DNA of 64,000 bases from an uncultured Candidatus Saccharibacteria bacterium (GCA_964597675.1 CAZQYV010000004.1:5590-69589); one strand, 5' to 3'; shown: positions 46,304 through 62,252, counted from the first letter of the stretch. Notes: a model not told the origin generated them from the sequence alone. A program made the numbers and translations.

Positions 46304-46330
46304 TATGATTCACAATCTTAATCTTGTTGA

Positions 46331-46423
46331 ATTATAATGATTTTAGAGACTTCGCAAGGCGGGTAGCCGAGACTTGAGGAATTTTTCAGCAGAAAAATAT
46401 CCGTGCTCTAAAATCATTATAAT
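46331..46423. repeat. Hairpin-bounded intergenic repeat, copy C (18-bp perfect outer inverted repeat and a conserved ~57-nt core)
   Basis: The outer IR is ATTATAATGATTTTAGAG / CTCTAAAATCATTATAAT. The core is ACTTCGCAAGGCGGGTAGCCGAGACTTGAGGAATTTTTCAGCAGAAAAATATCCGTG. It lies between gltX and the M23-peptidase gene. Confidence 0.6.
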
Positions 46424-46443
46424 GAATAAAAGATTAAGATTGA

Positions 46444-47931
46444 TTATTTTATTTTTTCTACCGCATCATTTATGCGCCCCACCGCCTCCTCCTTCCCGAG
46501 GACAAAAGCGAGGGTAAAGGGGTCAGGGCTTTTTTCTTTTCCTGATAGGGCGACACGAAGTGGCCAGAGGACGTTCCCTCTCCCCTCCTGTGTTGCATAG
46601 TCAAACACAATAGATTTTACTGTTTCAGAATTCATAAAATTATCTGCACTAGCATTATCAAATATATTTTTTACAAAGATAAGATGTTTTTTTACATCAG
46701 TAGATGGTGTATCTTTCCATGCAAGTAGTGTGGGCTCATATACTGGCTTTGAAAAGAAATATGACAATTCGCCATCTTTAATGAGTGCATCAATGTCACC
46801 CCATTTTGAAATGCGATCAAAAATAATTGGATATAATTTTGACATAAAGTCATCATTAGATGCCATTTCATTTTTGGCGATCTCGTCATTCATTAAAAGT
46901 CTTTTCTTGATCTCAACTTCCCTATCAATGTCCGACATTAATTTCATATGCTCCTTGTTCATCCAATCTAGTTTGTCATCATTCCATTGTGCGCCAGATT
47001 TATGCACCTTCTCAAAGTCAAAAACTTCTATAAGCTCTTCAACAGTGAAAATCTCTTTCTCACCCCCAGGATTAAAGCCGAGAAAAGTCAAAAAATTAAT
47101 CATCGTGTCAGGTAAGTATCCTTCTTTTTCATAATCCAAAATATCTTTTGCTCCATCACGCTTGCCGAGTTTTCGTTTTCCATCCTCGCCCATAATTGGT
47201 GGTGCAGTTACATATAGTGGTTCCGTTGCTCCAAGTGCCTCATATACAGCAATATAGTTTGGTGTCGATGAGATAAACTCTTGGCCTCTGACTACATGTG
47301 TCACTCCCATTTCTATATCATCAACTATGTGTGCAAAATTATATGTAGGATACCCATCACTTTTAATCAAAATGAAATCATCGAGGGCCTCTGGTCCAGC
47401 AGAAAGTTCACCACGAACAACATCCTGCCAGACAGTACGTTTCAATTCTCGTATCTTAAAGCGGAGTGGAATACCTTGTGTCCATGCTGGAGTATTTTCT
47501 GGGCGATGTTCACGATATAAAAAAGGTCTTTTTTCATCATCTGCTTTTTTTCTCAAAACATCTAGTTCCTCTTCAGATTTTGTATCTGCATATGCAAAAC
47601 CTTTTTCGATTAATTTTTCTGCATATTTCTGATATATATTCAGTTCCCTCATTCTCTCTGATTGTATGTACGGTGCAAAAGGACCTCCAATATCTGGTCC
47701 CTGATCCCACTCTAAACCAAGCCATTTAAGGGATTTCATAATATGTTCGAGTGAGCCCTCCACTTCGCGTTTTTGGTCTGTGTCCTCGATTCTTAAAATA
47801 AATTGACCCTTGTGTTTTCGCGCAAAGAGCCATGCATAAAGAGCAGTACGAACACCACCTACGTGCATAAAACCTGTAGGCGATGGTGCAAATCGTGTCA
47901 CTATATTAGTTTGGTTTGTATTTTCATCCAT
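46444..47931 (-). CDS. gltX: Glutamyl-tRNA synthetase
   Basis: HVGGVRTALYAWLFA (HIGH-type) and ...KLGKRDGA (KMSKS-type) motifs. The length of 495 aa is typical. Confidence 0.9.
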   Translation of the reverse strand: MDENTNQTNIVTRFAPSPTGFMHVGGVRTALYAWLFARKHKGQFILRIEDTDQKREVEGSLEHIMKSLKWLGLEWDQGPDIGGPFAPYIQSERMRELNIYQKYAEKLIEKGFAYADTKSEEELDVLRKKADDEKRPFLYREHRPENTPAWTQGIPLRFKIRELKRTVWQDVVRGELSAGPEALDDFILIKSDGYPTYNFAHIVDDIEMGVTHVVRGQEFISSTPNYIAVYEALGATEPLYVTAPPIMGEDGKRKLGKRDGAKDILDYEKEGYLPDTMINFLTFLGFNPGGEKEIFTVEELIEVFDFEKVHKSGAQWNDDKLDWMNKEHMKLMSDIDREVEIKKRLLMNDEIAKNEMASNDDFMSKLYPIIFDRISKWGDIDALIKDGELSYFFSKPVYEPTLLAWKDTPSTDVKKHLIFVKNIFDNASADNFMNSETVKSIVFDYATQEGRGNVLWPLRVALSGKEKSPDPFTLAFVLGKEEAVGRINDAVEKIK

Positions 47932-47957
47932 AATTTTTTATAACAACCTTTAGAAAA

Positions 47958-49085
47958 CTATTGCTCGTGTGAAAGAGTAATATTCAAAACTTGTTCTGCA
48001 ATAAGTCGCGCAGAATCTCTCCTTGCAAAACCTAGTGCCGCTTTTTTCATCTTTTCCTTTTCATCAGGGTTAGTCATGATGCGATTTATCTCAGCAATAA
48101 GTATATGACCATTGAGGTTTTTCTCCTCTATTACAACTGCCGCTCCTGTTCGTGCGTATGAATAGGCATTCATTCTCTGATGATCACCATTTGATTTTGT
48201 AATCGGAATAATAATGCTTGGTCTACCCCATGAGGCAATTTCAAAAATTGTTGAACCTGCCCGAGATATAACAATATCAGATGCCCCAGCAGTCATTCTC
48301 TGTTGTAGTAGATCAAGATAGTCATATGGTTTATAACGATTCTTGTTTACACTGTCATGCAAAATTAGTTCAGATGTCTCTTTCATAACACCAATATTTG
48401 CCTTACCTGTTTGATGGATAACATTGTATGATTTTACAAGTTCTGGTAGTGCATCCATAATTACATCATTGATCATCTGAGCGCCCTGTGACCCGCCACG
48501 AATCAAAATAGACGGTACGCTTGCATCAAGGCCAAGATATTCATAAGCGCCATTTGATAATGCATCCATAATCTCCCTTCTTACAGGGTTACCTGTATGT
48601 GCGACTTTGCCTACTGGAAAATGTTTTGCTGCCTCGGGATATGACACTGCGATACGTACAGCAAATTTGCCTGCCCATTTATTTACCATGCCAGGCACTG
48701 AATCAGATTCGTGTATTACCACAGGGATACGTAGAATTCTAGCCGCAAACAAAGCAGGAAAACTTGCAAAGCCACCTTTACCGAAAACCACATCTGGGTA
48801 AATAGAAAACAAAGCCCAGAGCGCTCGAAATGAACCCCATACAATTTTAAACAAATCAAAAAAATTAAGGATAGAAAAATATCGCCTAATTTTTCCTGCA
48901 GTTATTTGTCTAAATTCAACATTATTATCAAATAACAACCCCTCATTGTAGGGTTCTGTAGAAAGATAATACATTTTTGGTTCGATCAAGTGGTTTTCTT
49001 TGACAAGAGCATTTATTTCCTGTGCCACCGCAATGATTGGATAAAAATGCCCGCCTGATCCACCTCCTGTGAGTACAATTTTCAT
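47958..49085 (-). CDS. murG: Lipid II synthase MurG (undecaprenyldiphospho-muramoylpentapeptide beta-N-acetylglucosaminyltransferase)
   Basis: MKIVLTGGGSGGHFYPIIAV (G-loop 1) and a C-terminal GT-B domain. Confidence 0.9.
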   Translation of the reverse strand: MKIVLTGGGSGGHFYPIIAVAQEINALVKENHLIEPKMYYLSTEPYNEGLLFDNNVEFRQITAGKIRRYFSILNFFDLFKIVWGSFRALWALFSIYPDVVFGKGGFASFPALFAARILRIPVVIHESDSVPGMVNKWAGKFAVRIAVSYPEAAKHFPVGKVAHTGNPVRREIMDALSNGAYEYLGLDASVPSILIRGGSQGAQMINDVIMDALPELVKSYNVIHQTGKANIGVMKETSELILHDSVNKNRYKPYDYLDLLQQRMTAGASDIVISRAGSTIFEIASWGRPSIIIPITKSNGDHQRMNAYSYARTGAAVVIEEKNLNGHILIAEINRIMTNPDEKEKMKKAALGFARRDSARLIAEQVLNITLSHEQ

Positions 49086-49089
49086 ATTA

Positions 49090-50199
49090 TTATTTTTTAG
49101 CAGACAGCTTTGCAGTTTTTGATATATTTAGAATAATTCCAACCTCAGCAAGTACCATAAAAAGGGCTGTACCACCATGACTAATAAATGGCAATGTAAT
49201 ACCCGATAGTGGTAATACACCTACCATAGCTGCTATATTTACGAATGCTTGCGATACAATCATTATAACAATTCCAACGGTCAGTAGTCTACCAAAGGTA
49301 TCTGGTGTATGTGTTGCAATTTTGAGCCCCCGAAAAGCAAAAAATATAAACAAAAGGATGATCCCGACTGCACCGAGAAAGCCAAATTCCTCGCTTGCGA
49401 CAGCAAATATCGAGTCTCCAATTGGCTCTGGTAAATAATTAAATTTCTGAATACTTTGACCAAATCCGCGACCAGAAAGACCACCCGAACCAATAGCGAT
49501 TAGAGATTGTTGTATCTGGTATCCACTACCAAGTGAGTTTTCGCTTGGATGAAGGAATGTTGTAATACGACTCATAACATATGGGCGCTCATAAGCAATA
49601 ATACCCAGCCCAATAATTCCAGAAAAAAGGAGTATAAAAAAGTACCTCCACTTCCCTCCCCCCGCGATGAACATAGCTATTCCAGCAAAAAAAGTAATAG
49701 CAAATGTGTCAGTATCAGGTTGCTTTAGTAGAACTATACCAACGATTGATGTGATTATAATGAAAGGAATAAATCCGTAACGGATTGTTGTCACTCTGTC
49801 CTTGACTGATGCCAACCATGCGGCAAGATATATGATATATGCTATCTTCAATAATTCAGAGGGTTGGAATGTAGTGGCCCCCAAATCTATCCAACGATAC
49901 GCACCTCCATGCTGAATACCGATTTTTGGAACGAAAACTAGAAGTGTTACAACAATTGCTACGCAAAAAAAGTAAAATGCATATTTTCTATATTTTTTAA
50001 AATCAAAATTTGATGTAATGATACAAGCAATAATTCCAAGAAATAGACCGAAAAAAGTTTGGTTGAATGAGACGTTTGCATATTTTACACTCTGATTTGA
50101 TAATAGACCCAGAGATGCTGATGTAAATATCAAGAAACCGCCAATTACGAGAATTGCGATTGATATAAAAAACGGTATGTCGATTTTTATTTTTTTCAT
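49090..50199 (-). CDS. ftsW: SEDS-family peptidoglycan glycosyltransferase (FtsW/RodA)
   Basis: Ten TM helices with conserved blocks (...PSELLKIAYIIYLAAWL..., ...GSGGLSGRGFGQS...). Confidence 0.8.
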   Translation of the reverse strand: MKKIKIDIPFFISIAILVIGGFLIFTSASLGLLSNQSVKYANVSFNQTFFGLFLGIIACIITSNFDFKKYRKYAFYFFCVAIVVTLLVFVPKIGIQHGGAYRWIDLGATTFQPSELLKIAYIIYLAAWLASVKDRVTTIRYGFIPFIIITSIVGIVLLKQPDTDTFAITFFAGIAMFIAGGGKWRYFFILLFSGIIGLGIIAYERPYVMSRITTFLHPSENSLGSGYQIQQSLIAIGSGGLSGRGFGQSIQKFNYLPEPIGDSIFAVASEEFGFLGAVGIILLFIFFAFRGLKIATHTPDTFGRLLTVGIVIMIVSQAFVNIAAMVGVLPLSGITLPFISHGGTALFMVLAEVGIILNISKTAKLSAKK

Positions 50200-50230
50200 T
50201 GTACTGATAGAATTTTAAATTCTTGGCTCA

Positions 50231-50320
50231 GTGTGTCTTTCTCCTCACACACATAAAAGTCTACTGACTTTTTGCTCTGCTCGGCCCGTCGGCCTGCGCA
50301 AGGTTCGGATAAAGACACAC
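50231..50320. repeat. Hairpin-bounded intergenic repeat, copy E (inverted orientation relative to C and D)
   Basis: The outer IR is GTGTGTCTTTCTCC / GGATAAAGACACAC. The reverse complement of the core (..CGCAGGCCGACGGGC..AAAAAGTC-AGTAG-GACTTTT..) matches the cores of copies C and D. It lies between mraY and ftsW. Confidence 0.5.
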
Positions 50321-50342
50321 CTTCGCCGTAATTTAAAACATA

Positions 50343-51398
50343 TTAACTGACAAGTGCAAAAATCACACCGACAATTGCAAAGACGACACTGACAATCCAA
50401 TATCTCATGACCACTTTTTCCTTTGACCAACCAATTGCTTCGAAATGATGATGCAGTGGTGCCACACGAAAGACTCGTCTTTTTCCAAAATATTTATACG
50501 AAATCATTTGTATAATGACAGACAATGAGGTCAGGACGAGTGGCAATGCGATAATTGGCAATACCAAAACTGAATTTGTTAGGAATGCAATAACAGCAAG
50601 TGTAATTGTTAGACCAAGCATGCCCGTCTCGCCCATGTAAAATCTAGCTGGCGGTATGTTAAACCACAGAAATGCAAGCGTCCCTCCAGCAATAACGGCA
50701 CACAATGCCGCTATATCTATCTGGTTGTTTACAAAAGCAATAATAGCATATGCAGTAAATATAGATGTCAGTACTCCACCAGACAAACCATCGATGCCAT
50801 CAATAACGCTTGTTGAAAAAACTGCAAGCATAACTAGAATAAATAGTGGAATAAACCAAAGACCAATGTAAATATCTCCACCAAATGGGATATGCAATGT
50901 ATTCATATCAAGTTTGAAGTAAAACCATGATGAAATTGCAAGTCCAATGAGACATACTGTAAATATTTTTACCTTTCTATAAATAATATTGTCCTTGGCA
51001 TATGATCCGGTACCAAAAATTTGCATAAAATCATCTGCAAGACCAATAAGGGAAGCCAGAAGAAGTGTGCCTAGTGGAACCAACGTCTGACTACGAGAGA
51101 AAAAGTTGAGTTTCTCTGTCAATTCACTTGGAAAAAGTATATACATTACATAAATAAAAAATACAGTCAATGAGACTGAAACCCAAATTATAACTCCCCC
51201 AACTCGTGGAGTAGATAATTCACCTTTTGTATTATGTATCTTTGCAAAATCGTCGGTAGTAATATCCCCTGTCTCTGTTCGTGGGCTTTTCTTCCACATT
51301 CTATATTTGTAGAAAATATCGGTGAAAAAGGGTGTAATCAACACTCCTAGAAAAAAAGTTAGAACAGATGGTATAACGATTTTGATGACATCAATCAT
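50343..51398 (-). CDS. mraY: Phospho-N-acetylmuramoyl-pentapeptide transferase MraY
   Basis: Multi-TM protein with conserved blocks DDFMQIFG, ...IDGIDGL..., and HHHFE.... Confidence 0.9.
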   Translation of the reverse strand: MIDVIKIVIPSVLTFFLGVLITPFFTDIFYKYRMWKKSPRTETGDITTDDFAKIHNTKGELSTPRVGGVIIWVSVSLTVFFIYVMYILFPSELTEKLNFFSRSQTLVPLGTLLLASLIGLADDFMQIFGTGSYAKDNIIYRKVKIFTVCLIGLAISSWFYFKLDMNTLHIPFGGDIYIGLWFIPLFILVMLAVFSTSVIDGIDGLSGGVLTSIFTAYAIIAFVNNQIDIAALCAVIAGGTLAFLWFNIPPARFYMGETGMLGLTITLAVIAFLTNSVLVLPIIALPLVLTSLSVIIQMISYKYFGKRRVFRVAPLHHHFEAIGWSKEKVVMRYWIVSVVFAIVGVIFALVS

Positions 51399-53230
51399 AT
51401 TTTTTCCTTATCTATGAACGTATTATACCACAATGCGAGCATCAAAAGTAGGTAAATCTTTCTTGAATTATCCTCACTCTTATTTATGTGTTTTTCTACA
51501 AGATTTCTAATATGACCCATTTCCATGTGTGTCTGGATGTATTTGTTTGTATATATTATTTCGTAAATCTCTGCCCTCTCGCTTGTAAACCAATCACGAA
51601 CAGGTGTTGGAAAACCAAGCTTTTTACGATTACGTGTTGATTCAGGGATTATTTTTTCAAATGCTTTTCTAAGCAAATACTTTGTCGTGTATCCCCGCCA
51701 TTTAAACCTATCAGGCAATGTCGAGGCGAGACGTGCAACTTCAATATCTAGAAATGGTACTCGAAGTTCGAGCGAGTGAGCCATGGTCATTTTATCGGCT
51801 TTTGCCAAAATATCACCGACAAGCCAAGTATGTATATCAATATATTCCATCTGGACAGACTGGCTTAAATTTGCTACGTCAGCATATAGTCCATTTAGTG
51901 TGAATGCAGTCTGTTCTGGTGCCTTCCATAATCTGCAAATTTCATCTTGTTTAAAAATCGATGCATTGCCAATATACCAATCAGACAAACGAGAGACTGC
52001 ACGACGAATATAATTTTTACCAAAAAACTCAAATGGAATATTAAGAAACAATTTTAGAATTGAATGTGGTATCCAAGCAATATTTTTGCGTGCAAATGGC
52101 TCGAGATATATATTATAACCACCAAATAGCTCATCTGATCCCTCACCTGATAATACAACCGTAACATGTTTTCGCGCCTCACGTGAGACAAAATATAGAC
52201 CAATTGCTGATGGATCAGCTACGGGCTCATCAAAATGCCAAACCGCCTTTGGTAATACAGAAAAATATTCATCGGGGCCAATAGTAATTTCAGTATGATC
52301 TGTTCCAAGAAAATCAGCTGTTTCTCGTGCCTCTACACCTTCAGTTAGAGTATTAAACCCAACAGTAAATGTTTTAATTTTTTTAGTCCCTCGAATAGTC
52401 TGCATCATTGTCGCTATAATGCTACTGTCGACACCACCAGAAAGAAATGAGCCCACTGGAACATCGGCTATCATATGGTGTGCTACCGAGTCACGTATAG
52501 TATCTTGTATATCTTTTGTCGTCCTCTCTTCATCAAGATTTTCATCTGGTCTAAATGTAAACGACCAATATTTTTTTATAGTGAATGTGCCCGTAGTGCA
52601 ATCAATTGACATGCAATGTCCCGGAGGAAGTTTATACGCATCTTTGAAAAATGTCTCTGTCAGCGGGTTGTACTGATAAGAAAGATAATTGTAGACTGCA
52701 GTATCATTTACTACTGGTACATAGTCTGGTATTGAAAAAAAACTTTTTATTTCAGAGCCAAAGGCAATAAACTTGCTGTCTTGCACATAATAGTATAGTG
52801 GCTTTATACCAAAATGATCACGTGCGATAAAAAGAGTGTGTTTTTCTACATCATAGATAGAAAAAGCAAACATTCCCCGTAGTCGGCTGAGTGCTGTGTC
52901 ACCATACTCCTCATACATTTGTAAAATAACCTCTGTATCCGATGCTGTGTGAAATATTCGTCCCTTATTTTCTAATTCATTTTTTAGTTCCTTGTAGTTA
53001 TAAATTTCGCCATTAAAAAAAATACACCTTGACTTGTCCTGTGACCATATAGGTTGGGTGCCGGTTGAAAGGTCAATGATTGAGAGACGACGCATTCCTA
53101 GTCCAACATATTCATCCGAAAAAAAGCCATCCTGATCTGGCCCACGATGTACAATTGTTTCAGTCATAGCGCGTATGACCGTGTCTGTTATCCCCTTATT
53201 TTTCCCAATAATTCCGGTAATGCCACACAT
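51395..53230 (-). CDS. asnB: Asparagine synthetase (glutamine-hydrolysing) family amidotransferase
   Basis: N-terminal MCGITGI (class II GATase Cys2), the SGGVDSS PP-loop, and 611 aa. A 4-nt overlap with mraY suggests it belongs to the cell-wall operon. Confidence 0.85.
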   Translation of the reverse strand: MCGITGIIGKNKGITDTVIRAMTETIVHRGPDQDGFFSDEYVGLGMRRLSIIDLSTGTQPIWSQDKSRCIFFNGEIYNYKELKNELENKGRIFHTASDTEVILQMYEEYGDTALSRLRGMFAFSIYDVEKHTLFIARDHFGIKPLYYYVQDSKFIAFGSEIKSFFSIPDYVPVVNDTAVYNYLSYQYNPLTETFFKDAYKLPPGHCMSIDCTTGTFTIKKYWSFTFRPDENLDEERTTKDIQDTIRDSVAHHMIADVPVGSFLSGGVDSSIIATMMQTIRGTKKIKTFTVGFNTLTEGVEARETADFLGTDHTEITIGPDEYFSVLPKAVWHFDEPVADPSAIGLYFVSREARKHVTVVLSGEGSDELFGGYNIYLEPFARKNIAWIPHSILKLFLNIPFEFFGKNYIRRAVSRLSDWYIGNASIFKQDEICRLWKAPEQTAFTLNGLYADVANLSQSVQMEYIDIHTWLVGDILAKADKMTMAHSLELRVPFLDIEVARLASTLPDRFKWRGYTTKYLLRKAFEKIIPESTRNRKKLGFPTPVRDWFTSERAEIYEIIYTNKYIQTHMEMGHIRNLVEKHINKSEDNSRKIYLLLMLALWYNTFIDKEKI

Positions 53231-53281
53231 ATTCCCAGTATACTCAAAGGAGGTGATTTTGTCTAAAGAAGGTGTTTAAAA

Positions 53282-54232
53282 CTATTGCTGTAGAGACAGC
53301 AAGGTTGCATTTACAAGTGAGTGCACATCACTAAACCTACCGTCTATGGTTGAGCCAAGGACCACGACAGCGACAGGCCTGCCGAGCCCTGCATCGAACA
53401 CAACCGCAAGATTACCCCCAGCAAGAGCCGTATACCCTGTTTTAGAGGCAATTAGCCCTGGTATTTTCGAGATATCTTTGTTGGTATTTTCGATATTATG
53501 ATTCTTTGATAGTGATGAAACAGTAGCTCCTGTATATTTTGTTGCTTCAAGTATTTCTGGGTGAGTGTTCAATATTACTCCGAGTAGTTGTGCTACATTT
53601 TCAGCACTGCCGTATCCCCCACTCTGTTGAATGCCTTCATCGAGGCCACTTTCGTTTATAAAATATGTTTGTGATAAACCAAGTCGTGTTGCCTCCGTGT
53701 TCATTTTTTCTATAAAGTCTTTTCGCCCGACAGTATAGTTACCTGTTTGTGCCTGGGTTGCACCTATAACCGAAGCAACGGAACGAGCACCGTCATTTGA
53801 TGATGTCACAAGTGAAAAATCAAGGAGATCCTTTAATTTCCATGTTTCTTGCGATAATAGACCGTTATCTCCTTCTGTATTTAAAAACTCTTTTTTAATT
53901 GTTACTTGTGTATTTGCTGGCGCAAGATTTGTGGCAACAAATGCAGTCATAAGTTTTGTTAGTGAAGCAAGTGGTAATTGTGCAGTCTCATTTTTTTGGT
54001 ATAGAACTGTTTTGGTTGCAATATCGTAGACATATACTGCCTTTGCTTGGACTACCACATCTGCAAAAGCCCGCGTATTTACAACTACTGTTCCACCTCT
54101 ATCATTTTTCTTAATTGTCGTCTTATGCAATAAACCATACGCCATAAAGATAAGGCCAATAAGCCCACACAAGAGTGCTAGATTCAGTGCAAAAAGCGGT
54201 ATACTAATTTTTTGTTGGTCATTATTCTCCAT
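53282..54232 (-). CDS. D-alanyl-D-alanine carboxypeptidase (S11 / PBP5-like serine peptidase)
   Basis: SxxK (ASLTKLMTAFVA), SxN (SSNDGA) and KTG (SKTGYT) motifs with an N-terminal TM/signal anchor. Confidence 0.75.
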   Translation of the reverse strand: MENNDQQKISIPLFALNLALLCGLIGLIFMAYGLLHKTTIKKNDRGGTVVVNTRAFADVVVQAKAVYVYDIATKTVLYQKNETAQLPLASLTKLMTAFVATNLAPANTQVTIKKEFLNTEGDNGLLSQETWKLKDLLDFSLVTSSNDGARSVASVIGATQAQTGNYTVGRKDFIEKMNTEATRLGLSQTYFINESGLDEGIQQSGGYGSAENVAQLLGVILNTHPEILEATKYTGATVSSLSKNHNIENTNKDISKIPGLIASKTGYTALAGGNLAVVFDAGLGRPVAVVVLGSTIDGRFSDVHSLVNATLLSLQQ

Positions 54233-54770: not shown

Positions 54771-54998
54771 AGTATTAGTTTAGCACGGAATGCGAGCAGA
54801 GAAATCCACAGAAAAATACAAATTGACGGCGAAGATATATAATTTTTGGAGCCTTTCGCAGAAGTTTAGAAAACAAGGAGGTATTCCGACATTGTTTTCT
54901 TGAACGACGAGAAGTTCGCTAGCCCAGCAGGGCTAGACAGATTGCTCCAAAAATTATGTATCAAGCCAAGTAATTTGTATTTTTACAAGATATATTAT

Positions 54999-55736
54999 CT
55001 ACATAGTCTCATATCGTGGAACACCGACAGAGTGTGTCTCCATTTCTATGTCGTGAAAATCTTTATCTTGCCGAACATGGATTATTCCCTGCTTGACCAA
55101 CTCAAGCATGGCCAAGAAACTGACAATTACAGAGACTTTCTCCTCTCTTCCAATTCCTGAAAAATCCTTGAAACTCATACGCAGTGTACTTGTGATGCGA
55201 TGTGTAAGCCGTTCGATTGTCTCCTCGAGTGAGACAACCTGCTTGACCACCGCCTTTGGTACTGCTTCTAGCTTTGGCAGATTCTGTATGACATCGCGAA
55301 TAGTTTGGTGTATTCGCTCAATATTTGTATTTTTATCTGGTGTAAAAAGAATTTTTTTATCCTTTGACTGTAGTCTAATATATGACATGTGAATTCCGAA
55401 CCTACTTCGCAGGTGCTCGCTTAGTGCCTTATATTTTTGATATTGCCGAAGTCGATCTTCAAGGTCAGTAATATTACCTTGCTCTTCTTCCGAAAGTGTT
55501 AGATCTGGAAGAAGAGACTTTGACTTGATCAAAACAAGAGTAGATGCAATCAAAATAAAATGTGCGGAATCAGCAATTGGAAAATCCTCCAAACTTTTTA
55601 CATATGCAATATAATCATCTGCAACTTGGGCAAGCGAAATGTCGTTGATAAACAATTTACGCTTTTCAATAAGCGCAAGGAGTGTATCGAGAGGCCCCTC
55701 GAATATGTGAGTTTTGATAGTGTACTGGCTATCCAT
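54999..55736 (-). CDS. scpA: Segregation and condensation protein A
   Basis: The start was set at MDSQYTIKTHIFEGPLDTLLALIEKRKL (ScpA N-terminal signature). The tool's upstream extension is discarded. Confidence 0.75.
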   Translation of the reverse strand: MDSQYTIKTHIFEGPLDTLLALIEKRKLFINDISLAQVADDYIAYVKSLEDFPIADSAHFILIASTLVLIKSKSLLPDLTLSEEEQGNITDLEDRLRQYQKYKALSEHLRSRFGIHMSYIRLQSKDKKILFTPDKNTNIERIHQTIRDVIQNLPKLEAVPKAVVKQVVSLEETIERLTHRITSTLRMSFKDFSGIGREEKVSVIVSFLAMLELVKQGIIHVRQDKDFHDIEMETHSVGVPRYETM

Positions 55737-56011
55737 AGCACCATTATAGCAGGTTTTCTTATCCACAGTCATGGTATTGACAAAAATGATTCGTGGGTGT
55801 ATTATAATTAAAGAATCCTCTATCAAAGGGGTGTGTGCATACAGTGGTAGTTTATCTCCTTGCTTCCCCCGCCGCACATACCCACAAACATGTCCTTTCC
55901 TCCAAAAAACCTCAGACAGTTAGGCCCTGACTCATGTAAATCCTCAGAAGAGGTAAAGAGCACAGGGCCTGTTTTTTTATCAAAAAATCCTCTTGCGAGG
56001 ATATTTTGCTT

Positions 56012-57421
56012 TTATTTCTCCTTCTTTTTTACAAGTGAGATATTTAACTCCGCCAATTGTTCAGTAGAAATCTCTGCAGGTGAATTCATCATGAGGTCTC
56101 TCCCCTCGCCTGTTTTTGCGAATGGTATAACCTCGCGAATGTTTGGTTCATTTTGTAATAGCATCATCAAGCGATCAAGCCCCCATGCAATACCTCCATG
56201 TGGTGGCGTGCCAAGTGAAAAAGCAGTCAGCATATGTCCAAAGTTTCTTTGAATATCATCCAGCTTGTGTCCCATAATTTCAAAAACTTTCTCAAGTGCT
56301 TTTGGATCATGATTTCTGATACTGCCCCCGCCAATCTCATAGCCGTTTAAAGCGACATCATATTGAGTAGTTAAAATCTCACCAACATGACTCTTTTCAA
56401 TAAGCCATGGCAAATGTGCTGGTTGTGGACGGGAAAATGGATTGTGTGTAAATGTCCAACCACCCTCATCAGTTTTCTCAAAGAAAGGAAAATCTACAAC
56501 CCAACAAAACGCTAGCAAATTTGGATCACTTTTATCCTCTCGAATATCTGGCTTATCTGAATTGTATTTCTCCATTGCCTCCGCATATGAAAATCTTGGA
56601 AATGGAATCTGCTGGATACGTTTTTCTGGGTATAATCTCTGTACCAATGCAATCAACAGTTTTTCATTAAGTTCCATTACATCTTCACGCTCTACAAAAC
56701 TCATCTCGAGGTCAAGTTGTGTAAATTCTGGCTGGCGGTCACCTCGAGTGTCCTCGTCTCGCATACATCGTGCAATCTGGAAATATTTTTCCATACCAGC
56801 AGTCATCAGTAGTTGTTTGTACTGCTGCGGAGATTGCGGAAGTGCATAAAACATACCGGGGTAGAGACGTGCAGGGACCACGTAGTCGCGTGACCCTTCT
56901 GGTGTTGATTTTGTAAGTAGTGGAGTCTCGATTTCGATAAAACCTTCTGCATCAAGGTAATCTCGAATAAACTTAATCACCTTGTGACGGTTGCGTACGT
57001 TTTTCTGCATGCGATCGCTACGTAGATCAATATAGCGGTATTTCAGGCGTACATCTTCACCAATTTCTCGTGTATCACCTGATATTTCAAATGGTAATAC
57101 ATCTGTCTTATTCAAAATTTCAATTGCTTGTATTTCAAGTTCGATATCGCCATTTATAATCCCCTCTTTGATATTTCTCTCTGGTCGTTTATTGACCATA
57201 CCAGTTATTGCAACTACCCATTCGGTGCGCATTTCCTTGGCTGTCTCAATCGCTTCTGAATTCGGCAGCACAACCCCCTGTACCACTCCTGATGCATCGC
57301 GAACATCAACAAAAACCATTTTACCTTGATCACGTCGTACAGCGATCCACCCTTTCACCACAACTTGCTGACCAACATATTTACTTAATTCATTTATGTG
57401 TATTCGTTTCATAGTAATCAA
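56012..57421 (-). CDS. aspS: Aspartyl-tRNA synthetase, short (archaeal/eukaryote-like length, no GAD insertion)
   Basis: N-terminal OB fold. The flipping loop FYALPQSPQQYKQLL is the AspRS hallmark. Class II motifs 2 and 3 are present. 469 aa. Confidence 0.85.
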   Translation of the reverse strand: MITMKRIHINELSKYVGQQVVVKGWIAVRRDQGKMVFVDVRDASGVVQGVVLPNSEAIETAKEMRTEWVVAITGMVNKRPERNIKEGIINGDIELEIQAIEILNKTDVLPFEISGDTREIGEDVRLKYRYIDLRSDRMQKNVRNRHKVIKFIRDYLDAEGFIEIETPLLTKSTPEGSRDYVVPARLYPGMFYALPQSPQQYKQLLMTAGMEKYFQIARCMRDEDTRGDRQPEFTQLDLEMSFVEREDVMELNEKLLIALVQRLYPEKRIQQIPFPRFSYAEAMEKYNSDKPDIREDKSDPNLLAFCWVVDFPFFEKTDEGGWTFTHNPFSRPQPAHLPWLIEKSHVGEILTTQYDVALNGYEIGGGSIRNHDPKALEKVFEIMGHKLDDIQRNFGHMLTAFSLGTPPHGGIAWGLDRLMMLLQNEPNIREVIPFAKTGEGRDLMMNSPAEISTEQLAELNISLVKKKEK

Positions 57422-58399
57422 TTAATATAGCTTTACACCAATCGCTTCACGTACCAGTTCCATCTTTTTCTCGGCCTTTTGCTGTGCACGTTTACCACCT
57501 TCACGTAAAATATCAAGCACGTAATCTCGATCATCTGCCAGTTGTGCTCGTTTCTCACGTAAAGGCGCACAGAATAATTCGATTTTTTCGATCAATGTTT
57601 CCTTTGCCTCTTTGTAGCCCAATCCACCATTAGTGTAGCGAGAAGCGAGAGCAAGTCGTTCATCATCTGTCGCAAACAATTTATATAACTTAAATATAGT
57701 ATCTTCCTCTGGATTTTTTGGCTCATCCACACCTCTTGAATCAGTCGGTATAGCCATTACAGCTTTTTTGATTTCATCGTGTGTTGCAAAAAGTGGAATT
57801 GTATTACCATAACTTTTGCTCATCTTGCGTCCATCGGTACCCGGTACAACAGCAACTTCTTCAAGAATTTTTGCTTCTGGTAATTTGAAAACGTCACCAA
57901 ATATACGATTAAATTTTTCTGCAGTATCCCTCGCATATTCAACATGCTGTTTTTGATCCTGACCAACGGGTACAATATCTGTATCGTATATCAAAATATC
58001 TGATGCCATAAGCATTGGATAATTAAAAGTACCGACTGAAATTTCCTTGTCCTTTGCTTCAGCATCTTTATAGGCATGGGCACGCATGAGGTAAGGCATT
58101 GTTGTTATTGTGTCAAAAATCCAGGCCAACTCTGTGTGCTCGGAAACATCTGATTGTTTGAAAATAACAGATTCTTTTGGATTGAGACCCAATGCCAAAT
58201 AGTCTAAAGCAACATCAAAAACACCCTGAGACATTTCATCCTTGTTTTGAATAAAATTAAGCGCATGATAGTCGGGAATAAAGAAATAGCAATTGTAGTC
58301 CTTTTGCATATTTACAAACTGTCTCATTGCCCCGAAATAATTGCCAATATGAGGCCGGCCTGTTGGCTTGACCCCAGATAGCAGTGTTTTTTTAGTCAT
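57422..58399 (-). CDS. trpS: Tryptophanyl-tRNA synthetase
   Basis: LSGVKPTGRPHIGNYFGA (HIGH-type) and GRKMSKSYGN (KMSKS) motifs. 325 aa. Confidence 0.9.
   Translation of the reverse strand: MTKKTLLSGVKPTGRPHIGNYFGAMRQFVNMQKDYNCYFFIPDYHALNFIQNKDEMSQGVFDVALDYLALGLNPKESVIFKQSDVSEHTELAWIFDTITTMPYLMRAHAYKDAEAKDKEISVGTFNYPMLMASDILIYDTDIVPVGQDQKQHVEYARDTAEKFNRIFGDVFKLPEAKILEEVAVVPGTDGRKMSKSYGNTIPLFATHDEIKKAVMAIPTDSRGVDEPKNPEEDTIFKLYKLFATDDERLALASRYTNGGLGYKEAKETLIEKIELFCAPLREKRAQLADDRDYVLDILREGGKRAQQKAEKKMELVREAIGVKLY
58297..58365. repeat. 69-nt direct repeat, copy 1 (the genuine trpS codons ~11-33)
   Basis: AGTCCTTTTGCATATTTACAAACTGTCTCATTGCCCCGAAATAATTGCCAATATGAGGCCGGCCTGTTG. It is 66/69 nt identical to 60339-60407. 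Confidence 0.8.
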
Positions 58400-58425
58400 G
58401 TAGATATTCTAGCAAAAATCACCCT

Positions 58426-60252
58426 TTATTCAAAGTCTCTCTTTTGTTTTTGAAAAGCTTCAGAATACCTCCCACCCAAACTCAAAAGTTCCTGATGTTT
58501 GCCTTTTTCAACGACTTTACCTTCATGCAATACAATTATTTCATCAGCTCGTTTTATTGTTGCAAAATTGTGCGAAATTAAAATTGCTGATGTGGTATCT
58601 GGTAAATTTTCTATTTCATTAAAAATAATTTCTGCAGAATCAGAATCAATCGAAGCAGTTGGCTCATCCAAAACAAGAAACCTTTTACCTTTATAGAATG
58701 CCCTAGCAATAGCCAACTTTTGTCTCTGCCCTTTTGATGGCTCTACCCCACCAAATTCAACACCGATCATGTGGTCATATTTACCAGTTAACTCTTCTAT
58801 AAATCCACTAGTTGTACTTTTGTCTGCTGAACCTTTAACATTCTCCATGTCTATTTCCGCAACATTTTGTCCAACAGCAATCGATTCTTTAGCTGAAAAA
58901 TTATACGTGGTAAAGTCTTGCAATAATACCCCAAGGTATTTCCACCATTCATTTATATCAACATCTCTTAAATCAATCCCGTTTACTGTAATTTTTCCTT
59001 CAACAGGATCATGAATACGAAGCAACAAGCGAACAAGAGTCGACTTACCGGCTGCATTGTTTCCAACCAAACCTATTTTCTGTCCAGGCATTATTTTAAA
59101 AGAAATATTTTCAAGAGCCCATTTTTCTTGTCCTGGATACCTGAAGGAAACATTGTCAAAAACAACAGTCGGGGCTAAATCAAGGTTTAATTTTTTTGGA
59201 TTTTTTGAATACTCAAGAACTGTTGTCTCATCGAGAACAGCCAGAATATCTGTGGCGTATAAATTCCTCTCAAGTAATCTTGCGGTATTAGAAAGCAGAC
59301 TTGATATCCACCCACTTACCCGATTTAATGCTTGAAACGCAAAAACCACTGTTCCAATAGCTATCATGCCAGCAATTGCCTCATTTATTATCACAGCGGT
59401 ACCAACAAACAAACCTATGGCCGCAAAAATACTTGCACTTACTTTTGCTATTGTTCTCCAATTTTCTGTTGATAGTTGTTCATTTCTAAATTTATCTAGA
59501 ATATCCTTAATATCCGTCAAAAATTTTCCACCAGCTTGATAGAGTCTGCTGTCGATAACTGAAACCTTGCTACTAAAAAATCTTCTTAAGTCCTGATATC
59601 TTCTCTGCTCAGGACTGTTTTTTGCCCATATTCCCCAAATTCTCCCACCATATTTTATTTCAATCCAAAAATCAGGAATTGAGGTTACAAAAACAAGAAT
59701 AAATACTCGCCAATCAATAAAAGCAGCGGCAATAGCACCAACTACTATTCCACAGAATATTTCTAAATTAGAAAACTGCATATCGACTACGTTTATGATT
59801 GGATAAATACCATTATTGAATGCCCTTTGAAGTCTGTCTTGAAACTTTGGGTCTTCATATTGGGCAATATCAAATGATCCTCGTTTTCTTAGCGCCATTA
59901 AATCAAACAAATCCTGCATTTTTAAATATAAATGACGGTCAAGAAACGATCGAACATTTCTTATCACCGTGGGAACAGCAGTTAAAACAGCAAACATAAT
60001 TAATGCTGGATAGGTTACGGTAATATCCTGCATTTTGACACCTTCGATAATTTTATCAATTAAAATACCAAGGGCCCTTGCAGAAAAAATAGGAACTACA
60101 CCAATAATGACAGTCAATAATATCATCGTGCCGGTAAGCCACGGCATTTCATTAATTAAAATTCTAAAAATTCTGATTGTATTTCTAGCCAGGTCCTTAA
60201 AATTTTCTATACTACTTTTTGCCTTTACCTCATCAGATTTAGTTGTCTCCAT
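58426..60252 (-). CDS. ABC exporter, fused permease/ATPase (MsbA/lipid-A-exporter-like)
   Basis: Six N-terminal TM helices. Walker A (GNNAAGKST), the ABC signature (SKGQRQKLAIARA) and Walker B (FLVLDEPTASID). Confidence 0.8.
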   Translation of the reverse strand: METTKSDEVKAKSSIENFKDLARNTIRIFRILINEMPWLTGTMILLTVIIGVVPIFSARALGILIDKIIEGVKMQDITVTYPALIMFAVLTAVPTVIRNVRSFLDRHLYLKMQDLFDLMALRKRGSFDIAQYEDPKFQDRLQRAFNNGIYPIINVVDMQFSNLEIFCGIVVGAIAAAFIDWRVFILVFVTSIPDFWIEIKYGGRIWGIWAKNSPEQRRYQDLRRFFSSKVSVIDSRLYQAGGKFLTDIKDILDKFRNEQLSTENWRTIAKVSASIFAAIGLFVGTAVIINEAIAGMIAIGTVVFAFQALNRVSGWISSLLSNTARLLERNLYATDILAVLDETTVLEYSKNPKKLNLDLAPTVVFDNVSFRYPGQEKWALENISFKIMPGQKIGLVGNNAAGKSTLVRLLLRIHDPVEGKITVNGIDLRDVDINEWWKYLGVLLQDFTTYNFSAKESIAVGQNVAEIDMENVKGSADKSTTSGFIEELTGKYDHMIGVEFGGVEPSKGQRQKLAIARAFYKGKRFLVLDEPTASIDSDSAEIIFNEIENLPDTTSAILISHNFATIKRADEIIVLHEGKVVEKGKHQELLSLGGRYSEAFQKQKRDFE

Positions 60253-60338
60253 AGATTTTAATTATACCAGAGTTTATGCTTTAGTATATAGTACAAGTAT
60301 AAGCCCGTAGGATTAATATGTTATTAATCAACTAAGAG

Positions 60339-60407
60339 AGTCTTTTTGCATATTTACAAACTGTCTCATCGCCCCGAAATAATTGCCAATGTGAGGCCGG
60401 CCTGTTG
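60339..60407. repeat. 69-nt direct repeat, copy 2: a trpS 5'-coding fragment abutting the stop codon of the LUD-domain gene
   Basis: AGTCTTTTTGCATATTTACAAACTGTCTCATCGCCCCGAAATAATTGCCAATGTGAGGCCGGCCTGTTG. The two internal differences from copy 1 are synonymous in the trpS frame (GCA->GCG Ala, CAT->CAC His). Confidence 0.8.
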
Positions 60408-60408
60408 T

Positions 60409-61026
60409 CTAAAAGCCAAGTGGTTCTTCGACGAGAATGACAGTGATTTTTCGTCCTATCATAGGATTTTCTTTATGTAGAATAAGTGTCTTAGCATATG
60501 TTGTGCCAAATCCATATACGCTTTTCAATCGCTCATCCTCGAGTGGTATAACATATTCCTCTACTCGATGTAGTGCACTAGTGGTATCTGGTGTGATCTT
60601 CTGAGCACCGACAACAAAGATCAGGTTTGGCGAGGTAAAAACAATGTGAGGCAACTGACTGCCTGTGTTTGAAACAATAACAAGCTCGCCCGTTTCTGTC
60701 AGAGCATGAGCACTACCCAGATAATAATCCGATAGAACAGATTGTCGTCTAAGTAACATCTGCTTTTCAGGATCTTTCTCATTTACAATATCGGCATGTA
60801 AATTCTTCCATCCGTGTGTGCCTGATTTTAGATAATCAATATAACCAATCTCTTCCAATGTTCTTGACGAGCCATTCATTACCGACACTCCGGTTGGTAT
60901 CATTTTTTTAATTTCTGCCAATGCATCTTCCTTTGTATGTACAACTATCGGGGTAAAATTATTCGCTTGTAATGCGTCTGTTACCTTTTTAATACTTTCA
61001 TTTGTTGCGATTTGTGAATAATCCAT
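60409..61026 (-). CDS. LUD (lactate-utilisation LutC / YkgG-like, DUF162) domain protein
   Basis: 205 aa. ...LGSAHALTETGELVIVSNTGSQLPHIVFTSPNLIFVVGAQKI... is the typical LUD-domain core. Confidence 0.55.
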   Translation of the reverse strand: MDYSQIATNESIKKVTDALQANNFTPIVVHTKEDALAEIKKMIPTGVSVMNGSSRTLEEIGYIDYLKSGTHGWKNLHADIVNEKDPEKQMLLRRQSVLSDYYLGSAHALTETGELVIVSNTGSQLPHIVFTSPNLIFVVGAQKITPDTTSALHRVEEYVIPLEDERLKSVYGFGTTYAKTLILHKENPMIGRKITVILVEEPLGF

Positions 61027-61128
61027 ATATGCCTGATTAAATGTATAATTATGTATAATGAGAGTGTACCAGTTTATACTTTACTTTGTAAAGTGGTCAA
61101 TTACAAAAAATTGTGGTACAGTAAGTAC

Positions 61129-61416
61129 ATGAAGGAAAAAGGCTCATGCCCTGTTACAAAAGCAGCACATTTGATGTCTGATACATGGACAATGCTTATT
61201 ATGCATGCACTTATAACACGGCCAAAACGATTTTGTGAGATCGAGCGATCCCTTGATGGTATTTCGACACGTACCCTTACCCTAAAACTTATTTCCCTAC
61301 AAGAAGACAATCTTATCGAAAAAACTGATGATGGCTATTATGCAGCAACAGAAAAGGGTCTAGGTCTCAGACACGTGGAAAATGCAATGCGACGCTACGC
61401 CTTGAAATATCTTTAA
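61129..61416 (+). CDS. HxlR-family winged-helix transcriptional regulator
   Basis: CPVTKAAHLMSDTWTMLIMHALITRPKRFCEIERSLDGISTRTLTLKLISLQEDNLIEK. The start was set at MKEKGSCP. Confidence 0.6.
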   Translation: MKEKGSCPVTKAAHLMSDTWTMLIMHALITRPKRFCEIERSLDGISTRTLTLKLISLQEDNLIEKTDDGYYAATEKGLGLRHVENAMRRYALKYL

Positions 61417-61424
61417 CGGGGATA

Positions 61425-62108
61425 CTATTTTTTCATATAGATAATCCAAAAATTTCTTTTATAAGGGCGACCGTCCATAATTGAATAATTTGTCTTTTTT
61501 TCCATATGAATAATTGAAAAGAATGGTGAATATGTTTCAACAAAATCTTGCTTACTCCACACACGTTCCATTATCCCTATCTTTGGCATTATGTATGTAT
61601 CTTTTTCAAGGCAAGCATTATGCTTCAGGAGATACTTTGCATTTTCATCGCCATCCTTACATAATGCCTTTACAAAAAAATAACCATCATCTCGTAATAC
61701 TCTATTTGTTTCAGATAAATATACTATTCTCTCATCTTCGCTCAGTGAATTTGAAGATGTAATATCGAGAGCGATATCAACTGATGCACTAACGCATGGG
61801 AATGATTCACCTATACTTTGTTTTTTGTATACAACATCAAATTTTGTCCCAACTAAATTGTTTCTAGCAATTCCACATGCAGTTTCAGATATCTCCAAAC
61901 CGACAACATGAGCACCGTGCTCTGCAAAATAATATGAATTCCTACCTGTTCCAGATCCAAGATCAAGCACAGAAAGGCCTTCTGGCACTATCCCCTTTTC
62001 CTTTTTAAGGAAATTAACAAAACGCACCACATCTTGTTGCGGTTTATTATCCCTTGTTAAAAATGTTGGATTGCGATATTCATTATCCCAAACTTTTTCT
62101 TGTGACAT
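61425..62108 (-). CDS. Class I SAM-dependent methyltransferase
   Basis: Motif I, VLDLGSGTGRNSYYFAEHGAHVVGLEIS. Confidence 0.7.
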   Translation of the reverse strand: MSQEKVWDNEYRNPTFLTRDNKPQQDVVRFVNFLKKEKGIVPEGLSVLDLGSGTGRNSYYFAEHGAHVVGLEISETACGIARNNLVGTKFDVVYKKQSIGESFPCVSASVDIALDITSSNSLSEDERIVYLSETNRVLRDDGYFFVKALCKDGDENAKYLLKHNACLEKDTYIMPKIGIMERVWSKQDFVETYSPFFSIIHMEKKTNYSIMDGRPYKRNFWIIYMKK

Positions 62109-62137
62109 ATATATTATACAAAACTACGGCGCACGTG

Positions 62138-62223
62138 TACCTTTTGAGGAGACTTCGCAAGGCCGACGGGCAGAGACTTGATAAATTTTTCAGCAGAAAA
62201 ATATTCGTGCTCCTCAAAAGGTA
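62138..62223. repeat. Hairpin-bounded intergenic repeat, copy D
   Basis: The outer IR is TACCTTTTGAGGAG / CTCCTCAAAAGGTA. The core ACTTCGCAAGGCCGACGGGCAGAGACTTGATAAATTTTTCAGCAGAAAAATATTCGTG is ~85% identical to copy C. It lies between the histidine-kinase and methyltransferase genes. Confidence 0.6.
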
Positions 62224-62252
62224 TGCGAAGCCAAGAGTTTTGCTAGGTAGTC

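Follow-up and report, generated by a model that had tools for sequence, protein, structure and literature searches.

Multi-copy intergenic hairpin repeats with a conserved three-way-junction tip in Patescibacteria/CPR genomes

Hairpin-bounded repeats with a conserved core and dissimilar outer stems lie in several intergenic gaps of a 64,000-nucleotide stretch of DNA from an uncultured Candidatus Saccharibacteria bacterium (hereafter, the window), raising the question of whether they are a palindromic DNA element, a functional RNA, or both. The original prediction listed three copies of about 90 nt. We recovered all three at their predicted positions (46331-46423, 62138-62223 and, inverted, 50231-50320), with sequence patterns, covariance scores and a shared fold in agreement, and detected a fourth, divergent copy, making four copies of the family in the window rather than three.

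Copy 1 (plus strand; covariance model 104 bits, E 1e-29) extends over 46313-46442 and comprises an outer stem (46313-46325 / 46430-46442), an internal loop (GTTGA / GAATAAA), an 18-bp stem (P1) with perfect 18-nt arms (46331-46348 / 46406-46423), and a tip containing a three-way junction (46349-46405) that is, letter for letter, the most frequent form in the family. Copy 2 (62119-62242, plus strand; 89 bits, E 1e-24) has the outer stem AAAACT / AGTTTT, the internal loop ACGGCGCA / AAGCCAAG, a P1 stem at 62134-62151 / 62210-62227 within which 14-nt arms are perfect (62138-62151 / 62210-62223), and a tip (62152-62209) with the hairpin P2 variant GGCCGACGGGC. The 90-nt boundaries were thus too short, omitting the internal loop and the further outer stem of both copies. 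Copy 3, which is divergent and inverted (50215-50335, minus strand; 55 bits, E 5e-14), has 14-nt arms that are 93% complementary (50231-50244 / 50307-50320) and the flanking loop motifs ACGGCG (50324-50329) and AGCCAAG (50222-50228). The additional divergent copy 4 (54820-54975, plus strand; 31 bits, E 2e-6 for 54837-54960), located between scpA and scpB, has the same frame as copy 3 (ACGGCG at 54826, AGCCAAG at 54964, arms at 54834-54852 / 54944-54962), with an enlarged P2, a G+C-rich hairpin P3 and a retained AGCA loop. The window contains two occurrences of the core pattern CTTCGCAAGGC..GC.GAGACTTGA, where none was expected from 100 shuffles, and copies 1, 2 and 3 share one three-way-junction fold with z-scores of -4.4 to -5.6. 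A core common to the copies, as predicted, was borne out except in one detail: GGCCGACGGGC is limited to copies 2 and 3, and in copy 1 this small hairpin reads GGCGGGTAGCC, with covarying changes.

Pfam matches agreed with the predicted neighbors of copies 1-3 (the gltX|M23 peptidase, mraY|ftsW and histidine kinase|methyltransferase gaps, all between minus-strand genes). Copies occupy the whole gap from the stop codon to the TATAAT box of the following gene, and all four kinds of gene context are used. The strand reading GACTTCG is antisense to co-directional genes in a ratio of 20:9, that is, biased relative to replication. No consistent promoter directed into the element was found. An intrinsic (Rho-independent) terminator was rejected, as P1 presents a T run on its 5' side and an A run on its 3' side on both strands; a terminator scan did not call copies 1 and 2, and a U-tract terminator signature was absent. 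Ordinary terminators are present elsewhere in the window.

The window also contains two copies of a related second hairpin family, type D, both on the plus strand: one in the rpsI-grpE gap (37486-37649) and one, with a perfect 17-bp outer stem, in the dnaK-dnaJ gap (41107-41285). The former is laid out like the main family, its outer stems being long, its internal loop reading GTCCTCG / CTGCGAAT, and its tip running from CCTTCCGCAGA to CACGTGCTCACGG; another type D copy was found in contig L015.

Searches for exact matches to a 21-base pattern, together with a covariance model, confirmed that the repeats form a dispersed family. A genome scan yielded 26 loci, with at most five exact copies per MAG, and a metagenome scan added 20; the covariance model placed the total at about 60 copies, spread over about 45 contigs (372 kb), with as many as four within 14 kb. 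In some CPR genomes, the element makes up 1-3% of the sequence. All named contigs were from Patescibacteria/CPR MAGs except for one Verrucomicrobiales MAG (L007, 13.9 bits), which was a chance match, and the single match among 2.9 million viral contigs was spurious. No Rfam 15 family, whether hammerhead, twister, twister-sister, pistol, hatchet, Y RNA, 6S, STAXI or any other, matched anywhere in the window at the gathering threshold, and the family was not found in RNA databases or the searchable literature. The original prediction had proposed that its mobile-element interpretation would fail if these were the only copies and the core matched a known RNA family; instead, there are many further copies and no such match. 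Together, these results establish a multi-copy family of hairpin repeats that occupies intergenic sites in Patescibacteria/CPR genomes.

Each member of the family is an imperfect hairpin of 110-170 nt that consists, from the base upward, of outer stems that either are unique to the locus or diverge slowly, a purine-rich internal loop that is conserved (consensus CGUYGAA / GAGAAAG), the 18-bp stem P1 followed by A.G, A.A and G.G positions, and the tip. The internal loop lies exactly 18 bp from the core in about 35 of the 49 distinct copies. An inner stretch of about 8-9 bp, UUUUNGGAG / CUCCNAAAA, is semi-conserved (59% identity), and the true ends of the copies vary. The original prediction that outer stems differ between copies held, although they are not arbitrary and mostly lie within a conserved architecture of 150-170 nt. 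The tip, about 59 nt in length, forms an asymmetric three-way junction (GACUUCGCAAGG - hairpin P2 - GAGACUUGA - hairpin P3 - CGUGC), almost invariant across copies, genomes and CPR classes. One 59-mer was letter-identical at 12 loci, comprising the window and MAGs labelled Saccharibacteria, Parcubacteria, Minisyncoccia and Zambryskiibacteriota, an identity across classes that is inflated by ascertainment because the search pattern fixed 21 of the 59 nt. Pairing was maintained in 95% of cases in P1 and 98.7% in P3, with both-sided changes at every pair of the two stems; these values were reached by none of 500 shuffles, and structures slid by 1-3 columns scored much lower. P2, which is dissimilar to P3, was backed by RNAalifold and by the variants GGC/GCC to GAC/GUC and GCUC/GAGC. 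Such covarying stems should be read with caution, as selection on RNA is not their only potential source: correction of one arm by the other on the DNA can also produce them.

The composition of the stems bears on which strand and which nucleic acid are constrained. In P1, G.U pairs outnumbered A.C combinations by 42 to 12, and some variants of P2a are maintained solely via G.U pairs, suggesting a constraint on a single RNA strand; a purely DNA-level palindrome would lack such a bias. Two observations count against the reading that we favor below: a single conserved position contributes 17 of the 42 G.U pairs in P1, and in the outer stems A.C combinations instead outnumber G.U pairs (76 versus 42). 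Alternatively, the element could act as single-stranded DNA or a cruciform that offers proteins of replication, repair or recombination a site on one strand, with the bias reflecting G.T pairs in a DNA hairpin. DNA hairpins likewise tolerate strand-specific wobble, the 20:9 strand bias of GACTTCG is relative to replication, inversions and arm homogenisation (see below) take place on DNA, and GCGAAG on the complementary strand may resemble the very stable d(GCGAAGC) mini-hairpin. However, the favored strand, judged from skew and orientations, would mostly be the leading-strand template and hence rarely single-stranded, a polarity relative to the fork would be lost upon inversion in place, and purine-rich internal loops combined with short G.U-dependent helices are typical of RNA. 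We consider this DNA-based explanation very unlikely.

A catalytic RNA within the repeat, such as a novel self-cleaving ribozyme, would account for a small three-way junction whose nucleotides next to the junction are invariant and whose peripheral helices covary, and a multi-copy occurrence in any orientation to genes is a trait common to hammerhead and twister repeats. Nevertheless, Rfam searches of copy 1, the L015 element and type D at E<=10 returned just plant/animal miRNA-precursor and snoRNA noise and no ribozyme family, the junction may be nearly all base-paired, with few free conserved nucleotides, and a closing stem of 30-45 bp would be atypical. We regard catalysis as highly improbable.

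Comparisons between relatives revealed how individual sites change. At the copy 2 site, 108 of the 183 columns of the window and L047 matched in reverse complement only, between collinear flanks, and inversion in place was also seen between L012 and L048 (116 of 132 columns). Both orientations do occur, as predicted, but they result, at least in part, from flipping of the complete element at its site and not from two-way insertion; such inversion also suggests that orientation, and hence a cis-acting RNA role, is not critical. In strain L030, another module replaces P3 at the copy 2 site between flanks that are 100% identical. The copy 3 site is hypervariable in strain L002 (73/157 nt differ in the element versus 2/1462 in the flanks), and the copy 4 site is frozen in strain L031 (0/228 versus 21/1012). 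A canonical copy in the orientation of copy 4 is present at the scpA|scpB site of L027. Between L019 and L033, one copy was truncated and a short hairpin took the place of a copy. No copies were present in 91 kb from two relatives (regions fetched via methyltransferase homologs); the better sampled of these includes a 20-kb region with the gene order of the window and has a plain perfect hairpin directly upstream of the methyltransferase gene, that is, in the slot of copy 2. Neither a clean empty site nor a donor-recipient pair proving gene conversion was recovered. The contig breaks (contigs frequently terminate within copies, as in L001, L023 and L030), mosaic modules, and gain, loss and decay at syntenic sites support the predicted REP/BIME/Correia-like behavior.

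A copy persists at scpA|scpB among relatives with 77% DNA identity, and copy 4 is maintained between strains; selfish DNA would explain this less well than a host function. The element might be a structured RNA that serves the host, either cis-regulatory or part of a ribonucleoprotein and vertically inherited at each site, in which the junction would bind a conserved CPR protein or machine, the 18-bp stem and loop would form a measuring or recognition module, and repeat behavior would be secondary. This explanation accommodates the extreme conservation of the tip over CPR classes, the constant 18-bp spacing of the conserved purine-rich internal loop, the G.U bias of P1 with a wobble-dependent P2a, the maintained site and orientation in L027, and the invariance of copy 4 despite 1.7% flank divergence. 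It is less easily reconciled with the missing copies in 91 kb of two relatives, including the 20 kb with conserved gene order, with truncated or replaced copies, with inversions that ignore neighboring genes, with the use of every one of the four gene contexts, with the failure to find a promoter, and with composite copies that hold modules in both orientations, and we regard it as plausible but rather unlikely.

Conversely, the family could be a MITE-like non-autonomous mobile element, with its enzyme encoded elsewhere, that targets the tips or centers of palindromic intergenic hairpins, a preference that would explain perfect inverted flanks that differ from copy to copy. Consistent with this, unrelated perfect stems of 27-38 bp lie beyond a common TTTTTGGAG...CTCCAAAAA boundary in L005, L009, L013, L024 and L033, internally identical paralogous copies differ in short palindromic extensions (gtatc/gatac, tacat/atgta and catg/catg), a module (X) is nested in both orientations, and plain long perfect hairpins, which are frequent in these genomes, include the one in the equivalent slot of a relative. 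However, no transposase, integrase or HUH protein was found among the 57 ORFs of the 64-kb window. The direct target-site duplication of a MITE such as Correia, ERIC or Nezha was not seen, the flanks of paralogous copies being inverted complements (gtatc...gatac, tacat...atgta) that continue the palindrome, and conserved long terminal repeats were not seen in the family. The missing empty site and the single spurious match among viral contigs also argue against such mobility, and outer stems and loops are homologous in most copies, in which the unit would thus be the full 150 nt. We judge this possibility to be unlikely.

We tentatively favor the reading that the family is a non-autonomous repeat spread by recombination that fills the hairpin slot between transcription units, and whose tip is constrained as a strand-specific RNA of putative function. 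The spreading unit would be the conserved tip with about 9 bp of stem, propagated by recombination or gene conversion among copies, and the tips of ordinary intergenic hairpins may also capture it, with no enzyme encoded by the element taking part. The long arms may stay complementary partly because each serves as a template for repair of the other and the two recombine as DNA, which would generate inversions too. When transcribed, the element would form a very stable hairpin at a transcription-unit boundary that could stop read-through, offer a processing site for a double-strand RNase, or shield 3' ends, and the tip, constrained as RNA on the GACUUCG strand, would probably be a docking site for a conserved CPR factor. 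Points against this favored reading are the position of 10 of the 46 copies between divergent genes, where read-through is not expected, the absence of a consistent inward promoter and of a U-tract signature, the inversions in place, the lack of a clean empty site or of a proven donor-recipient pair, the ascertainment effect on tip identity, and the copies conserved at scpA|scpB. A more far-reaching version, to which we assign little probability, holds that the tip is a strand-specific functional RNA (a protein-docking three-way junction or a ribozyme) on a self-flipping palindrome, in which invertase-free arm recombination switches the transcribed strand.

The CPR repeat is an addition to the REP/BOX/Correia-like kind of repeat. 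Like the REP/BIME elements of enterobacteria and pseudomonads, it is intergenic and palindromic, lies at transcription-unit ends in both orientations, and forms mosaic combinations, and the roles suggested for those elements (mRNA stabilisation, attenuation and protein binding) are similar to those proposed here. In contrast, the conserved unit of REPs is a palindrome of 20-40 nt with a GTAG-type head, whereas the CPR repeat is four times longer, with variable arms and a conserved asymmetric center; copies are about 92% alike in the center and about 40% in the outer 10 nt of the arm, a distribution on which a REP/BIME palindrome was rejected. REPs are mobilised by RAYT, a Y1 transposase, of which none occurs among the ORFs of the window. 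BOX (Streptococcus pneumoniae), ERIC and Correia elements are, like the CPR repeat, modular (boxA-B-C) repeats of 100-170 nt that form long RNA hairpins; they affect the expression of neighboring genes, and Correia elements are processed by RNase III. They have conserved terminal inverted repeats, with a TA target duplication in Correia elements, whereas the ends of the CPR repeat are its least conserved part.

Invertons and the flip/flop termini of parvoviruses and poxviruses share with the CPR repeat an asymmetric segment between inverted arms that occurs in both orientations at a locus, but the CPR repeats are chromosomal and internal rather than terminal, and their inversion was seen between relatives and not in one population. 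A phase-variable inverton was rejected, as the window encodes no recombinase and the best internal promoter match (9/12) has a -10 region that covaries as the P3 stem. Integron attC sites are likewise strand-specific folded hairpins (60-140 nt) that keep structure rather than sequence, with a tip that can be variable and sometimes branched; however, they conserve the outer R boxes (RYYYAAC / GTTRRRY) and vary centrally, the reverse of the CPR repeat, whose neighbors are housekeeping genes (gltX, mraY, ftsW and scpAB) and not cassettes, with no integrase in the window. An IS200/IS605-derived element, which would have a pair of similar subterminal hairpins and a TnpA(Y1) partner and insert 3' of a fixed tetra- or pentanucleotide, was rejected on the unlike P2 and P3, the lack of a fixed flanking motif, and the lack of a Y1_Tnp match in the window. 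TIGR arrays of Tas systems (CPR and phages), in which short repeat-spacer units stand in tandem beside a tas gene, were rejected because our copies are dispersed singletons between housekeeping genes.

For RNA biology, the family provides a well-supported three-way-junction motif that is absent from Rfam and open to testing, and for genome biology, a natural example in which palindromes flip, trade modules and keep their arms alike. The repeats also offer an explanation for recurring contig breaks in CPR bins during metagenome assembly. If the self-flipping version were true, it would mean a genome-wide flip-flop control of transcript boundaries at dozens of sites in organisms with leaderless-type genes. 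A large part of bacterial diversity belongs to CPR/Patescibacteria, whose genomes are tiny and streamlined, and in such genomes this repeat load and a tip shared across classes are unexpected.

The copies originally predicted at 46331-46423, 62138-62223 and, inverted, 50231-50320 (copies 1, 2 and 3) were all present, and Pfam assignments agreed with the gene pairs named for them, gltX|M23 peptidase, histidine kinase (HK)|methyltransferase and mraY|ftsW, respectively, all on the minus strand. The proposed outer inverted repeats were perfect in two copies (18 nt and 14 nt) and 93% complementary over 14 nt in the third, but the hairpins were longer than claimed: with their internal loop and further outer stem, copy 1 spans 46313-46442 and copy 2 spans 62119-62242. 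All three folded alike (z-scores -4.4 to -5.6), with a long closing stem, P1, carrying two small hairpins, P2 (GGC..GCC) and P3 (A/U-rich). Copy 4, a divergent one, was found in the scpA|scpB gap (54837-54960; 31 bits, E 2e-6). The pattern of the shared core occurred twice in the window and in none of 100 shuffles.

With the exact 21-base pattern GACTTCGCAAGG-N6-14-GAGACTTGA, a scan across 185,579 species, each represented by a single genome, returned 26 loci, confirming that many further copies exist. All the named loci but one belonged to Patescibacteria (CPR) MAGs, labelled among others as Saccharibacteria, Taylorbacteria, Zambryskiibacteriota, Minisyncoccia and the Parcubacteria group, with up to five exact copies in one MAG. 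A match on a Verrucomicrobiales contig scored 13.9 bits with the covariance model and was attributed to chance; a scan of viral contigs gave one spurious match of the same 13.9-bit class, and a phage-borne element was rejected. A metagenome scan added 20 loci, and the covariance model, built from 28 copies, detected about 60 copies in 372 kb, at the densest four in 14 kb. The shuffles, the genome scan and the covariance-model matches together exclude chance or local convergence as the source of the copies. Contigs often ended inside copies (as in the compared contigs L001, L023 and L030), as expected since the element is a repeat. The window organism itself is poorly sampled; its methyltransferase has its nearest matches among Parcubacteria/Paceibacterota proteins, none above 70% identity. 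Within these scans the family is large and confined to CPR bacteria. The element matched no Rfam 15 family at the gathering threshold or at E<=10, which excludes a known RNA family, and no tRNA or tmRNA kinship was found within the window. Full-text literature searches yielded nothing on such repeats in CPR; the element is without description in Rfam 15 and the literature searched, and is akin to known intergenic repeat families.

Over 70 distinct sequences, pairing reached 95% in P1 and 98.7% in P3, with both-sided changes at all pairs of these stems; none of 500 shuffles reached the observed values, and structures shifted by 1-3 columns scored far lower, statistics that are valid for P1 and P3 only, as the P2 pairs lie one column off register in the model. 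P2 was backed by RNAalifold and by the variants GGC/GCC, GAC/GUC, GUC/GAC and GCUC/GAGC. P1 comprises 18 bp and is bordered directly outside by A.G, A.A and G.G. Of the 49 distinct copies, about 35 continue from there into a conserved internal loop rich in purines, 5' CGUYGAA / 3' GAGAAAG (5' ACGGCGCA / 3' AAGCCAAG in the window lineage), beyond which lies a 6-7-bp stem, AAAAYU / ARUUUU, often with a further stem, GAAUUACGAAAU. In copies without the conserved loop, the sequence beyond a common UUUUUGGAG / CUCCAAAAA boundary forms perfect, unrelated stems (27-38 bp). Twelve loci, drawn from the window and from MAGs carrying four CPR lineage labels, shared one 59-nt tip letter for letter, where 21 of the 59 positions were preset by the search pattern and 38 were free to vary. 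The outer arms, unlike the tip, were only about 40% alike between copies. The predicted likeness to REP/BIME and Correia repeats holds in part: the element behaves like these and like BOX and ERIC, but departs from their defining traits, its centre rather than its ends being conserved. Its conservation pattern is the reverse of that of attC sites.

On the GACUUCG strand, P1 contained 42 G.U pairs versus 12 A.C mismatches (17 of the 42 from one conserved position), and certain P2a variants were paired through G.U alone; in the outer stems the bias was reversed (42 versus 76). The G.U count over the whole structure was equal on both strands (114 versus 115) and was discarded as a strand test, the inner-stem bias being visible only in the position-resolved count. 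These counts are suggestive but not decisive evidence that the inner stem and tip are under strand-specific constraint, most simply as RNA, while evolution of the outer arms seems close to neutral, with a mutation bias set by their usual orientation. A constrained single strand could also be a single-stranded-DNA site, a reading that we consider quite improbable. A new ribozyme is the least probable of the alternatives by our estimate.

In most window genes the ATG is preceded at 6-12 nt by a TATAAT-like box (for example at 17159, 27523, 30662, 41391, 58426-60252 and 61425-62108), and few of the genes have Shine-Dalgarno sites, which suggests that most are transcribed leaderless or nearly so. 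The elements occupy the gap between the upstream stop codon and this box. Both neighbouring genes were called for 46 copies; of these, the copies between co-directional genes were antisense in 20 cases and sense in 9; 10 lay between divergent and 7 between convergent genes. No consistent -10 box was found at any fixed distance upstream of the hairpin in about 50 copies, and a promoter inside the tip was rejected as weak (9/12), its -10 region covarying as a stem. The signature of a U-tract terminator was not seen at the element; ordinary terminators are present elsewhere in the window. A canonical TTGACA-N17-TATAAT promoter, reading away from the element, directly adjoins its 3' end in one sublineage (contigs L037, 230-270; L043, 1467-1500; L051, 4805-4840; L040, ~7780-7818). 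Separately, in a 761-nt gap at ~44268-45028 of the window, the gene strand switches from plus to minus and cumulative GC skew peaks, probably marking the replication terminus.

Comparison of related loci was the most informative part of the analysis. At the HK|methyltransferase site, the whole element, including its internal loop, was inverted in place in the relative L047, with flanks about 93% identical and break points within the outermost 6-bp stem; L012 and L048 differed by a second, independent inversion. Assembly k-mers greatly exceed the break points in length, so the inversion is no artefact of assembly ambiguity. In-place inversion is shared with invertons, but the element has no promoter in the flipped segment and no invertase nearby. 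Strain L030 matches the window over its flanks at 100% identity and carries, in place of P3 and the 3' junction, the reverse complement of another unit, module X. At the mraY|ftsW site, 73 of 157 positions separate the element of strain L002 from copy 3, many of the changes being compensatory, versus 2 of 1462 in the flanks; the differences extended beyond A positions and across the whole gap, excluding DGR-type adenine-specific mutagenesis. L019 had just the 5' half of a copy that is whole in L033, and the site of a whole L019 copy is occupied in L033 by a short hairpin alone. No copy was found in 91 kb from two relatives reached through methyltransferase homologs. The better-sampled one (six overlapping contigs, L052-L057, ~20 kb) has the gene order of the window, with a NUDIX gene in place of the histidine kinase upstream of the methyltransferase gene and a plain perfect 14-bp hairpin just upstream of the latter, in the slot of copy 2. 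A conventional mobile element aimed at hairpins is improbable; a conventional MITE is disfavoured by the lack of any transposase in the window, by the variable outermost ends and by the lack of direct target duplications.

Module X is a 70-85-nt unit, TGAGAAR-hairpin-TTCGCAAGAYC...GTRTACWG-CCTGTAAGG, ending in the CCTGTAAGG hairpin and with a stem-loop between TTCGCAAGAYC and GTRTACWG. It replaces P2 or P3 of main-family copies in direct (L018, 392-485; L022, 4464-4540; L024, 6530-6600) or reverse-complement orientation (L042; L047, 440-530; L030, 1-28), and also occurs on its own hairpin scaffold (L044, ~3480-3570; L048, ~2950-3040). Type D, a second hairpin family with members of 160-200 nt, has the layout of the main family (window 37486-37649 and 41107-41285; L015, 5113-5263); its tip, CCTTNCGCRGAYTCCTTT...CACGYGC.C.CGG, and internal loop, GTCCTCG / CTGCGAAT, are unlike those of the main family, and CGCAG/CGUGC and CGCGG/CGCGC covary between copies. 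A heat-shock link (grpE, dnaK and dnaJ in the window) was rejected, the L015 copy adjoining an M50 peptidase instead. Between genes, these CPR genomes commonly carry plain perfect hairpins with arms of 19-26 bp and loops of 1-6 nt (L009, 3100-3153; L020, 360-413; L004, 6492-6544; window 26363-26401). At L010 4144-4235 and L017 952-1047, a small hairpin and then an inverted T-arm complement come after a tRNA 3' end (TTCGAATCC...CCA), an arrangement that may represent convergent tRNA genes or a tRNA-anchored hairpin. A 464-nt G+C-rich inter-ORF gap at window 25001-25464 folds very strongly, at -75 kcal/mol over 170 nt, had no Rfam match at E<=1 and may be an unrecognised structured RNA. The leucyl-tRNA synthetase (window 18215-21118) has a NUDIX domain at residues 397-513, beside its editing domain.

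Some copies were stable: copy 4 was unchanged in strain L031, whose flanks differ by 1.7%, and a canonical copy occupied the same scpA|scpB site and orientation in a relative with 77% DNA identity. This conservation, the fixed 18-bp stem, the purine loop and the wobble bias suggest that an RNA-level constraint also acts on the inner part. A purely host-functional RNA is the less likely reading. The scattered occurrence, turnover and mosaic make-up of the element, the contig breaks and the identity of the tip across classes speak for a repeat that spreads and is homogenised by recombination, and fit an ancient essential RNA less well. We tentatively favour a repeat propagated by recombination that also plays a role, at the RNA level, at the boundaries of genes. 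Its long inverted arms would serve as substrates for recombination and templated arm-to-arm correction, which could generate inversions, perfect arms of unique sequence and short palindromic extensions outside otherwise identical paralogues, the correction also producing 'compensatory' changes in one step. Placed at a transcript boundary, such a hairpin would affect read-through, processing and stability.
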